Assembly: GCA_029838215.1 (NCBI GenBank)
Contig: JALGVI010000012.1
Coordinates: 30,357-94,356, forward strand
Direction: 5' to 3'
Source of the DNA: Candidatus Helarchaeota archaeon
Lineage (GTDB): Archaea; Asgardarchaeota; Lokiarchaeia; Helarchaeales; RDOG01
DNA length: 64,000 nucleotides
Shown here: piece after piece, positions 6,454 to 62,093 of the stretch
Numbering within the stretch: position 1 is the stretch's first letter
Layout of the letters: each line of letters starts with the position of its first letter
The notes under the pieces: model-generated
Seen by the model: the letters and a program-made list of their open reading frames with translations, nothing else
What the model was told of the DNA's origin: nothing
Databases searched by the model: none
Made by a program: the position numbers and the translations under genes

Positions 6454-6834
6454 TTAAATATTTCGCCATTCTTTCATTAAATTTTTATAATTTTCATCAG
6501 AAACTTCATAGACTTTAAAGAGATTCAACGGCTCTGCTAGAAGGCGGGCAAGCAGGTGATAACAAATTTCGCTCTTTTTATTCATGACATTCATGTAAAA
6601 ATCATCACAATTACAATATTTGTTTTTAATCGTGAGATAGTCACGCTTTTTTCCAAGGACAATCCATACCACGCGATTACTCGGATGAAACATGTATTTT
6701 AACACACGCTTCTCCAAGATCACCCGAAATGCCTTGAAAAATCTTTCACCGTAATGTTCTGTTAATTCGTTCAATAACTTGCCCGATATTGTTTCATCTT
6801 TAATTTGAGGGAGAACTTCATCAATGAATCTCAT
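6454..6834 (-). CDS. SWIM zinc-finger protein
   Basis: YCNCDDF...ICYHLLA (CxC...CxH). Confidence 0.85.
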   Translation of the reverse strand: MRFIDEVLPQIKDETISGKLLNELTEHYGERFFKAFRVILEKRVLKYMFHPSNRVVWIVLGKKRDYLTIKNKYCNCDDFYMNVMNKKSEICYHLLARLLAEPLNLFKVYEVSDENYKNLMKEWRNI

Positions 6835-6943
6835 GAAACTCGTTCCTAAATAGAATTTAATTTTAACGATATTATTAAAAGAATTTGAGTTGATTGCTTT
6901 CTAAATTCCACTTCCTCATTACATTAAAAATTTAACTTTAATA

Positions 6944-7111
6944 TGGTGGGAGATGCGTGATTTTCGCACGCCCACGCAAGTAAATAAAACGTGAACGTGA
7001 TTCGAACACGCGATCCCTGGTTGTTTCGCGCAGAATGCGACCCGAAACCAGAATCCTAGCCAAGACAAGAAACATCTCTTGTCATTCATAGCCAAGCTAG
7101 ACCAATCTCCC
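6944..7111 (-). tRNA. trnP: tRNA-Pro(CGG) with three introns (22/23: 7056-7087; 37/38: 7023-7040; 59/60: 6961-7000); CCA encoded
   Basis: Removing 32+18+40 nt gives a 78-nt cloverleaf: GGGAGAU/AUCUCCC acceptor stem, CUGGU-UUCGGGA-ACCAG anticodon arm, GCGUG-UUCGAAU-CACGC T arm, ACCA end; each intron is bounded by a bulge-helix-bulge. Confidence 0.9.
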
Positions 7112-7222
7112 ATCAGGAAACAAATTTTTTCTTATGAGAAGATTCGGTATCTCGAATCATAATTATGTATTAAAAAAATTTATTAAAATTTAATGCAAGT
7201 AGTATAACGTAAGAATTTTCGG

Positions 7223-7627
7223 ATGGATGAGGAATTGACGAAAAAGCTCTCAGGAATTACCGCAAAAGAGTGCATGATTAAAGATCCGATGACGATCCCA
7301 TCAACTGAGCAAATTGCCGCAGCAGATCTTTTAATGCTCCGCAATAATATAGGTGGATTACCTGTAGTTGATGACGGCATTCTCGTAGGGATCTTGACCT
7401 TACGGGATATTCTCATTTCACGGTTCTCGCATTCTATTGGTGGAATCAAAGTTAGAGATCTCATGACGAAAAATCCAATTACAGTCACGCCTGACACGCC
7501 TCTCAAAGAGATTCTAAAGATTTACACGGAAAAAGGGATCGAACGACTTCCAGTAGTCAAGGACGGGGATGTCATTGGAATCGTGGTTCATCGAAAAATA
7601 CTTGAAAAAATACATGATAACATATAA
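7223..7627 (+). CDS. Stand-alone CBS-pair protein
   Basis: Two CBS repeats (GLPVVDDGILVGILT; RLPVVKDGDVIGIV). Confidence 0.9.
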   Translation: MDEELTKKLSGITAKECMIKDPMTIPSTEQIAAADLLMLRNNIGGLPVVDDGILVGILTLRDILISRFSHSIGGIKVRDLMTKNPITVTPDTPLKEILKIYTEKGIERLPVVKDGDVIGIVVHRKILEKIHDNI

Positions 7628-25617: not shown

Positions 25618-27087
25618 TCATGTTTTTTTAGGTTTTTTATGTTTTATAGGTTGGACGTGGTCGTGCTTCATCAATTTTGTTAAATTTTTTCCTAAATCCA
25701 TGAGTGCACTGCTCAATCCTTCCTCGTAATCCTTGATATCATCGAGCTTTGAACCGAAATCAGTCAATTCTCGCGTTATACTGGAGTTATAGCCCTTCAA
25801 ATCGGCGATCTCGCTCTTTATTTCCAATTTAAGATTTTCAAAATCGTCTTGTAAAGTCTTCACGGCAACCAGAACATCATTAAAACCATCAATGATCAAT
25901 TGCAAGTCATCCGTGGTGAGGGATCCTTTACTCACGGCAGGCAAAACGGGAAGTTGAAATTTCGAGCCTTTTGCTTTGGGATCACCAGACTTGGCACCGA
26001 CTTTTGCCATACTGGTTCTTCCCATAACAGCATTGATAAAATCAATGGTTTGAATCCACCGATGATCCTTGTGCTTTTCAATTGCCCATTCGATCATGCT
26101 CATGAATAGCTTCTCGTGATAGAACCATTTCAGGACTTTGTTCCTGAACATTTCCCACGACCCAATGCAGATCACTTTTCCCAATCCGACTTCTGCAACA
26201 GCCATCACGCAGGCATTGGTTGGATCAGCGATGGCATCAGCCCAAGCAACAGGCCTTGCATTTCCAGCAATTTCCAAACTGCAAGCAGAACGCAAGCAGA
26301 CTTCTTTCACGCCTTTCACGGCAGGATGATCAGCAAACTTGGATATCATTGGCAGGGTAGGAATTCCATTATTATTTACTTCATCAGTCACCTGATTGTT
26401 TTGGAACGTTATGCCAAATTCACGTGAAAGCGCATTTAGATTGGTACCCCTACCATGATCCCCGCCAGCGTTACTTAATAAAATAAGACTTCCACCATTC
26501 TTCACGTAACGAACGAGATTCTTGATTTCTACGGGATTAAATTTTGAATGATCAGGACAGGCAAATATCACGACATCATAGCGAACCAATCGTGGTTGAA
26601 CCATTACATCATTAAACTCGAAGCATTTGAATGCGTAGTCTTGAAGAAGCCTTGTCAAATCTTGGAATGAGTCTTGGAGTTTTCCCCGTTCATTCAAATT
26701 TCTATCAAATGCGATATAGGCTCTCCAAAGATGTTTTTTCCGGGGACGACTTTCTGACCTGTCTTTCGGGCTAGTAGTACTGCTGGACTCGAGTAACTCG
26801 CCTTTTTCCGTTGAATCTTCCTTCGGCGAAACGATTTCTTCAGATTCATTTGATTCATTTGATTTAATCTCTTTTTCAGGTTCAGGTGTTGCATCTTGAA
26901 TAGCAAGCTGGTCAAAACTGAAACCATCATGTGATGTCTCTGTCGAAACCGTGTTACCAACGGACTCTTTTGCGGCTTCCAATTCTTTTTCAAGTTCTAA
27001 CTTAAGATCTGTGGGTTCTTCAACAGGAAGTAAAAGATTTTCATCCGTGCTTTCTTCTTTTTTTGCTTTCTTTTTCGGTGGTGTCAA
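25618..27087 (-). CDS. GIFT (GldG/IFT52-like) domain protein with acidic N-terminal region and C-terminal coiled coil
   Basis: KFNPVEIKNLVRYVKNGGSLILLSNAGG...TNLNALSREFGITFQNNQV...GKVICIGSWEMF. Confidence 0.7.
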   Translation of the reverse strand: MTPPKKKAKKEESTDENLLLPVEEPTDLKLELEKELEAAKESVGNTVSTETSHDGFSFDQLAIQDATPEPEKEIKSNESNESEEIVSPKEDSTEKGELLESSSTTSPKDRSESRPRKKHLWRAYIAFDRNLNERGKLQDSFQDLTRLLQDYAFKCFEFNDVMVQPRLVRYDVVIFACPDHSKFNPVEIKNLVRYVKNGGSLILLSNAGGDHGRGTNLNALSREFGITFQNNQVTDEVNNNGIPTLPMISKFADHPAVKGVKEVCLRSACSLEIAGNARPVAWADAIADPTNACVMAVAEVGLGKVICIGSWEMFRNKVLKWFYHEKLFMSMIEWAIEKHKDHRWIQTIDFINAVMGRTSMAKVGAKSGDPKAKGSKFQLPVLPAVSKGSLTTDDLQLIIDGFNDVLVAVKTLQDDFENLKLEIKSEIADLKGYNSSITRELTDFGSKLDDIKDYEEGLSSALMDLGKNLTKLMKHDHVQPIKHKKPKKT

Positions 27088-56630: not shown

Positions 56631-56835
56631 ATTAATCAATGAAAAATTGCTTTATTCGAACACCTCATTGCTTAACAAAGAAACACATATTTCACTTCTT
56701 CTTGGGTTTGTTTGACCGGCGGTCGAATCTCTTCTATTGGGAGATAATTTTTTAAAAATCAAGAGCAAGATCGTAAAATTAACAAGTAGGATTAATAAAT
56801 TTCTAGTAAATCGAATTTTTCATGTTGAATTAATC

Positions 56836-57396
56836 ATGAATGAGAGTAATGATGTCCAAAAAGAAGAAATTGAACAAATACAGGTCACTTACGATGGAGA
56901 TACGTTAAGAATAACGGATCCTGAGAAGGCGGAAGCATTTTATAAAAAGGGTTTTTATGGAAACCTCCAAGAAGATGGACAACTAGTCCTTAGCATGGTT
57001 GAAACCCTTTTGAACCTTGAAAGACAGCGAATCTTCATTTTGGATGATAAAACAGGTGAGCCGCAAGGTTTTCAAGACATCGTAAAGAAATTTGTGAAGA
57101 AAGACAAAAATCTTTGGACAAAATATTTAGTATATAAAGATTTGAGAAACAGAGGATATGTCGTCCGCGAGGGTTTTTTAGAAAATACTTATCGCATTTA
57201 TGATCGTGGAGCTAAAGTAGGGGAAAAAACCTCAAAGTTCTTGGTATCGATCATTCTTGAAGGATTACCGCTGAAATTAACGGATCTCGAACAAATCGTG
57301 AAATCCTCCAAGAGCATGCGTAAGAATCTCGTGCTTGCAGTGATTGATCGACAAGGCGAGACGACATATTACAAGTGTTCTTCGGTAAACCTTTAA
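56836..57396 (+). CDS. endA: tRNA splicing endonuclease subunit, probably the structural (beta) subunit
   Basis: VYKDLRNRGYVV, RIY, MRK, LAVIDRQGETTYY; Thr at the catalytic His position. Confidence 0.85.
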   Translation: MNESNDVQKEEIEQIQVTYDGDTLRITDPEKAEAFYKKGFYGNLQEDGQLVLSMVETLLNLERQRIFILDDKTGEPQGFQDIVKKFVKKDKNLWTKYLVYKDLRNRGYVVREGFLENTYRIYDRGAKVGEKTSKFLVSIILEGLPLKLTDLEQIVKSSKSMRKNLVLAVIDRQGETTYYKCSSVNL

Positions 57397-61994: not shown

Positions 61995-62093
61995 TGGCGG
62001 ACTCGCTGGGATTTGAACCCAGGACTACAAACTGTCTCCAATGTCATGGCATGTTAGGAGGCTTGTGCCCTATCCAGGCTAGGCTACGAGTCC
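61995..62093 (-). tRNA. trnR: tRNA-Arg(CCU) with a 21-nt intron at 37/38 (62034-62054); CCA encoded
   Basis: GGACUCG/CGAGUCC acceptor stem, CAAGC-CUCCUA/A-GUUUG anticodon arm, CUGGG-UUCAAAU-CCCAG T arm; CUCC/GGAG central helix. Confidence 0.92.

Follow-up and report, generated by a model that had tools for sequence, protein, structure and literature searches.

Heavily interrupted tRNA genes have already been published for Asgard archaea, and the tRNA-Pro(CGG) gene described here is one more example. In three Asgard genomes 92-95% of the tRNA genes are interrupted and over half have several introns (Valentin-Alvarado et al. 2024, PMC11291895). Up to five introns per gene have been reported in a more recent preprint (10.64898/2026.10.13.758758), which notes that D-arm introns are missed by tRNAscan-SE and that Asgard tRNA introns are without the transposition-type families, in contrast to those of Thermoproteales. 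In Thermoproteales, intron sequence families common to different tRNA genes have been described and read as transposition (Sugahara 2008 and Fujishima 2010, as cited in the papers on Asgard archaea). A two-subunit EndA with an L1 loop occurs in Asgard and TACK archaea and has been tied to cleavage of relaxed motifs (Kaneta et al. 2018, PMC5829648). An earlier note on this DNA, made from its letters, held that triple-intron tRNAs are known mainly from Thermoproteales; that statement is outdated, such genes having been published for Asgard archaea (PMC11291895; 10.64898/2026.10.13.758758; PMC5829648).

The gene runs from 7111 to 6944 on the minus strand of the window, by which we mean the whole 64,000-nucleotide stretch of DNA that was analysed. 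Its 168 nt comprise four exons and three introns, all read on the minus strand. We put at about 0.88 the probability that it is a working gene whose transcript is spliced three times. Exon 1 (7088-7111, 24 nt) holds the acceptor 5′ strand GGGAGAU, U8, G9, the D-stem 5′ strand, the D-loop and U22. It is followed by a D-arm intron of 32 nt (7056-7087) at site 22/23. Exon 2 (7041-7055, 15 nt) supplies G23-U26, the anticodon stem 5′ strand, U32 and U33, the anticodon C34 G35 G36, and G37, and ends at an 18-nt intron in the anticodon loop (7023-7040) at the canonical site 37/38. Exon 3 (7001-7022, 22 nt) carries A38, the anticodon stem 3′ strand, the variable loop GGAUC, the T-stem 5′ strand and U54-A59. 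The third intron, 40 nt in the T-loop (6961-7000), lies at site 59/60, and exon 4 (6944-6960, 17 nt) completes the molecule with U60, the T-stem 3′ strand, the acceptor 3′ strand AUCUCCC, the discriminator A73 and a CCA end encoded at 6944-6946.

Joined, the exons give a 78-nt RNA that ARAGORN calls as tRNA-Pro(cgg), in keeping with the claim that cutting after the second base of each bulge would leave a clean tRNA. The RNA has a normal cloverleaf with U33, G37, A73, G1-C72 and the encoded CCA; all 21 stem pairs are intact except 13-22, and the conserved bases are all in place. The anticodon CGG, G37, A73 and the G1-C72 pair have a role in recognition by ProRS. This is the sole proline tRNA gene with a CGG anticodon that our genome-wide search found, and the codon CCG occurs about 7 times per 1000 codons of long open frames.

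The unspliced gene is not called by ARAGORN, either in the window or in the whole genome with intron mode, nor is it matched by the Rfam tRNA covariance model in the window at the gathering score or in a whole-genome search. With E values up to 10 allowed over 6700-7400, Rfam gave no tRNA signal, only chance snoRNA and miRNA matches. That standard scans would miss the gene thus holds for ARAGORN, with and without intron mode, and for the Rfam tRNA model. Our own search looks for an acceptor stem, CCA and U8, then for the D, anticodon and T arms, allowing one insert of 10-130 nt per arm; each insert is penalized and motif quality earns a bonus. A version of the solver without the motif bonus misplaced anticodon-loop introns and picked another D-arm register, and the motif-aware version was used instead. 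Applied to the 3.6-Mb genome, the search yields 35 distinct tRNA genes with scores of 59-74, tRNA-Pro(CGG) scoring 67.8 with the same three pairs of junctions as in the earlier note.

The exons can be checked against an intronless tRNA-Pro(UGG) of the same genome (G000:C75:7016-7093, minus strand, 78 nt with CCA). This paralogue, with no introns and anticodon UGG, has the same length as the spliced form of the three-intron gene with anticodon CGG, and 66 of the 78 bases are identical. Identity extends from U8 through position 28, covering the whole D-arm with U22, and the variable loop and T-stem are likewise identical. The acceptor stem differs by two compensatory pair changes (positions 6-7/66-67), and the anticodon stem also differs by compensatory pair changes. 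The match with the paralogue settles U22 and the 78-nt product without use of the splicing motif. U22 is also found in the tRNA-Pro(CGG) orthologues of three relatives (G001, G002 and G004).

Every one of the three inserts has all four central pairs of a bulge-helix-bulge motif and 3-nt bulges at its junctions. We describe each motif by the base pairs of its central, inner and outer helices, counting flanking helices to 4 at most. The intron at 37/38 has parts 4,4,4: outer helix CUGGU/ACCAG, central helix UUCG/CGAA, bulges GGU and ACA, and inner helix CGCA/UGCG. Parts 4,4,4 are also found at 59/60, where the outer helix is the T-stem GCGUG/CACGC, the central helix is again UUCG/CGAA, both bulges are AAU and the inner helix has 10 bp. 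Both are strict motifs, since both flanking helices reach the 4-bp counting limit. At 22/23 the parts are 4,2,1: the central helix is GGCU/GGCU with two of its four pairs G-U, the bulges are AUG and AGG, and the inner helix consists of AA/UU, a 1-nt bulge and then the stem GACAAGA/UCUUGUC. This motif is relaxed because its outer helix has at most 1 bp. The description given in the earlier note, of two perfect motifs that reuse a UUCG/CGAA core and a relaxed one in the D-arm, therefore stands in each of its parts.

The 168-nt precursor folds at -66.8 kcal/mol (z = -5.0 against shuffles). In the minimum-energy fold the 59/60 motif is present exactly and a near-equivalent pairing stands in for the 37/38 motif. 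In the D-arm the register of the central helix is kept, lengthened to 8 bp with the 3′ cut site inside the helix; the GACAAGA/UCUUGUC stem also has 8 bp in this fold, its closing G-U pair included. A fold with all three motifs enforced lies 6.8 kcal/mol above the minimum. The buried 3′ cut and the cost of enforcing the motifs point to the D-arm site as a relaxed substrate, and they count against the triple-splicing reading. Because of short repeats, cutting at 22/23, 23/24 or 24/25 yields an identical product, and the same is true of the eight positions between 57/58 and 64/65 inclusive; it is by the motif alone that 22/23 and 59/60 are chosen as the junctions.

The best surviving alternative keeps the gene and excises the D-arm insert in another register, with the intron's UUGGCUA copy serving as D-loop and leading to G22, or with a shorter D-loop. 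A G22 would give U13 a partner, U13-U22 being a mismatch, and the solver without the motif bonus favoured a 34-nt D-arm insert and a 76-nt product. We nevertheless consider this register improbable: a D-arm with U22 is what the intronless tRNA-Pro(UGG) and the three orthologues have, the alternative junctions have poorer motifs, and 22/23 wins once the motif is scored.

Triple splicing calls for an endonuclease that accepts the D-arm site, and the genome encodes two EndA paralogues. EndA alpha, a 190-aa protein (G000:C168:14184-14756), has its closest match in 3P1Z_B, the catalytic subunit from Aeropyrum pernix (E 5e-48). The alignment covers its Crenarchaea-type loop, where GKPLGIRKPKNAEF stands against GQPLDVEKPRGADF of 3P1Z_B, and the active-site Tyr, His and Lys are kept. 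The second paralogue lies within the window (56737-57396, plus strand) as a 219-aa open frame, the protein likely being shorter; it can be aligned with Methanocaldococcus jannaschii EndA, a Thr occupying the position of the catalytic His, and is presumably the structural subunit of a two-subunit enzyme. Judged by homology, the host endonuclease should be able to cut relaxed motifs. An RtcB ligase is present (577 bits), as is a full-length actin match (440 bits); the latter and a two-subunit EndA with an L1-type loop are consistent with an Asgard host. A Pfam search for profilin gave no match, nor did its controls, and a search for related loci with a protein of the window gave distant archaea only (at best 54% identity, Thermococcus).

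From these parts we infer transcription, cleavage at the three sites and use of the tRNA in translation. The gene would be transcribed as a precursor of about 168 nt. A two-subunit EndA, pairing a catalytic subunit whose Crenarchaea-type loop would allow relaxed substrates with a His-less partner, would cut after the second base of each 3-nt bulge, at a relaxed site in 22/23 and at strict sites in 37/38 and 59/60. Ligation of the four exons by RtcB would then complete the 78-nt tRNA, its CCA end already in place.

A BLAST search of the whole precursor against 40 relatives gave only exon-1-sized matches to proline tRNAs, so orthologues were sought with short exon patterns. These located tRNA-Pro(CGG) in five genomes of the same order (G001-G005), here set beside the studied genome (G000). 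G000 belongs to family f1, and its introns were listed above: 22/23 (32 nt), 37/38 (18 nt) and 59/60 (40 nt). The other f1 member, G001, has introns at 17/17a (27 nt) and 37/38 (18 nt). Family f2 is represented by G002, with introns at 37/38 (17 nt), 46/47 (30 nt) and 59/60 (29 nt), and G004, with introns at 37/38 (18 nt), 46/47 (31 nt) and 59/60 (31 nt). In family f3, G003 has introns at 6/7 (27 nt), 37/38 (23 nt) and 59/60 (31 nt), and G005 has one at 37/38 (21 nt). CCA is encoded in the orthologues of G000 and G001 only.

This survey of intron positions, proposed in the earlier note as a check, shows a constant 37/38 site, a widespread 59/60 site and a varying third site. The 37/38 intron occurs in all six genes (17-23 nt, with a 3′ end of GCGAAAY or GCGGAAY), and from these sequences the six introns look orthologous; since the intron is present in every same-order orthologue, it is probably old. 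An intron at 59/60 is present in three of the five relatives (G002, G003 and G004), with no sequence in common beyond the motif. The third intron of the relatives is at 6/7, 17/17a or 46/47, or is missing, and the 22/23 intron is absent from all same-order orthologues examined (G001-G005), being present only in G000. The D-arm intron is thus a probable lineage-specific gain, with 59/60 widespread. With the canonical intron fixed, the T-loop one widespread and the third shifting, the pattern agrees with repeated gains; repeated, lineage-specific intron gains have been described for Asgard archaea (Goswami et al. 2026 preprint, 10.64898/2026.10.13.758758).

The orthologues bear also on a second alternative, that the gene is decaying or silent, with its inserts, or at least the D-arm one, left unspliced and CCG read by tRNA-Pro(UGG). 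Where a U34 isoacceptor exists, its C34 counterpart can be dispensable, and tRNA-Pro(UGG) might read CCG by wobble, in which case the gene may be non-essential and tolerate decay. A clear promoter motif was not found in the region upstream of the gene, and none is common to the upstream regions of the genome's tRNA genes either; this and the relaxed D-arm motif are what such a reading would draw on. We rate it a shade below the register alternative. A decaying gene would hardly keep its conserved bases and every stem pair save 13-22, which is unpaired in the paralogue too, nor would all inserts be expected at motifs whose 4-bp central helix is complete, and interrupted yet intact orthologues are spread across three families.

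Non-tRNA or chimeric matches in our search score at most 41. That the locus resembles a tRNA by chance and holds no gene is by far the least credible reading, and the decoy and the paralogue already refute it: three removable segments do give the search freedom, but the best score in the reversed-genome decoy is 38.1 against 67.8, the D-arm and T-stem of the exons are identical to those of the paralogue, and orthologues exist.

The three-intron tRNA-Pro(CGG) gene has company in its own genome. Twenty of the 35 tRNA genes found by our search are interrupted, by 28 introns in all; about 10 expected tRNAs are not among the 35, so the true intron burden is higher. By site the 28 introns divide into 18 in the anticodon loop, six in the D-arm and four in the T-loop. 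Two genes have three introns each, tRNA-Pro(CGG) and tRNA-Leu(CAA); the latter (G000:C115:11460-11634, minus strand) has a D-arm intron of 19 nt, an anticodon-loop intron of 38 nt and a T-loop intron of 31 nt. The proline set runs from no introns (UGG) through one, at 59/60 (GGG), to three (CGG). The window's only tRNA matched by the Rfam model is tRNA-Arg(CCT) (61995-62093, minus strand), which has a canonical 21-nt 37/38 intron and an encoded CCA.

CCA is encoded in 34 of the 35 genes of this census; it is absent from Ala(CGC), an extra gene taken from the Rfam and ARAGORN lists. The proline tRNAs of G001, from the same family (L135), likewise encode CCA, and the proline tRNA genes of the order's other families (L106, L107, L115; G002, G004, G005) end mostly in TTA or TTT. 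Encoding of CCA may be a trait of the family of G000 and G001. Without the CCA requirement, a second search that started from T-arms brought in few further candidates: Ala(CGC) and three others. The latter, putative interrupted tRNA genes that lack an encoded CCA (scores 53-56), lie at G000:C86:37906-38021 (plus strand) and at reverse-strand offsets 26278-26443 and 26631-26785 of C75. In the closest relative about 20 tRNA genes, several with introns, are packed into 4.3 kb (G001:C3:627507-631783), an array that is unusual for an archaeon and possibly lies on a mobile element.

Two of the tRNA-Pro(CGG) introns resemble the exons beside them. The D-arm intron ends in CTTGGCTAG, resembling the exon sequence CTTGGCTAT. 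The T-arm intron opens with TCACG, as exon 4 does; its end, GCGTG..AA, nearly repeats the T-stem 5′ strand of exon 3. We compared, in register, the 18 bases around the 5′ junction of each intron with the 18 around its 3′ junction. Both introns have 12 of 18 positions identical (binomial p 2.6e-4 each), where a null of 756 cross-pairs has a mean of 4.55 and a maximum of 11; the other 26 introns of the genome average the null value. The near-copies of adjacent exon that the earlier note saw at the ends of the 22/23 and 59/60 introns are accordingly real at this level (p about 3e-4).

Further tests narrow the signal. An anchored-similarity test gives p = 0.007 for the D-arm introns of Pro(CGG) and Phe and 0.05-0.16 for the other four D-arm introns; the six values, all 0.17 or less, combine to about 5e-5 (Fisher's method, by hand), and the same test finds no signal in canonical introns. 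Part of the D-arm repeat has a structural origin: G-U pairs let UGGCUA pair with its own copy, and about 1 in 16 of its pairing partners would be identical to it. Identical central-helix strands are not enriched among introns with a full central helix (2 observed, 0.88 expected). In free local alignment of each intron with its own mature tRNA (28 tests), only two are notable, the Pro(CGG) D-arm intron (p 0.04) and that of Arg(CCG) (p 0.01), and neither survives correction for 28 tests. The strongest direct similarity of an intron to its own exons is that of the 47-nt intron of tRNA-Arg(CCG) (G000:C89:33231-33355, minus strand; score 22, p about 0.01).

The earlier note proposed that such introns arise by local duplication or transposition. 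The second half of this proposal finds no backing. Among the 28 introns the best intron-to-intron score is 21, against a shuffled-set maximum with mean 18.7 and 95th percentile 22, and BLAST of the D-arm intron against the genome gives chance matches only. Since no intron resembles another beyond chance and the D-arm intron finds only chance matches, transposition, or copying between tRNA genes of the Thermoproteales type, is unsupported. Duplication fares better in part, with two introns at 12 of 18 and none of the other 26.

A possible course of events starts from a self-complementary word in each loop: the D-loop has UGGCUA, which pairs with G-U pairs included, and the T-loop has UUCGAA. 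Were either word copied nearby, the copy would pair with the original and so might form the central helix of the splicing motif at once; the junction repeat would then decay as the intron ages. The 59/60 introns of relatives, at the same site, are without such copies, which speaks against this course. The idea that the D-arm and T-loop introns originated as local duplicates of the adjacent exon is tentative and, in our view, considerably more likely wrong than right; it is a lead for these two introns and not a general rule. Were it true, local duplication would be an arrival route for Asgard tRNA introns, a route left open in the preprint, where local duplication is not addressed (10.64898/2026.10.13.758758). 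According to a 2025 paper, every intron has direct repeats nearby; the paper's archaeal examples number four, and the span it allows is a loose 40 bp. The junction repeats of the two introns may help, in a small and testable way, to explain the origin of such introns.

For annotation, the genome's only tRNA-Pro(CGG) escapes ARAGORN and the Rfam tRNA model, and with about 10 expected tRNAs still unfound, tRNA counts for such genomes understate the real set.

As in this genome, tRNA genes of Thermoproteales can have as many as three bulge-helix-bulge introns, at non-canonical sites, and their EndA is heterotetrameric with broad specificity; unlike theirs, the 28 introns here form no sequence families. 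The published Asgard cases are closer. Their focus is on Atabeyarchaeia, Freyarchaeia and Jordiarchaeia, whereas the genome studied here is from another lineage, and its burden, 28 introns in the 35 genes found, is lower than theirs. The in-register junction repeats of two introns are not treated in PMC11291895, PMC5829648 or 10.64898/2026.10.13.758758. Otherwise tRNA-Pro(CGG) resembles the published Asgard multi-intron tRNAs: it has several short protein-spliced introns at canonical, D-arm and T-arm sites, a weaker D-arm motif of the kind that annotators miss, and a host with a two-subunit EndA with an L1 loop; as in those cases, intron positions vary among related lineages and no intron families are common to different genes. 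With it, the Asgard archaea known to have multi-intron tRNAs extend to a lineage beyond the focal families of the published work.
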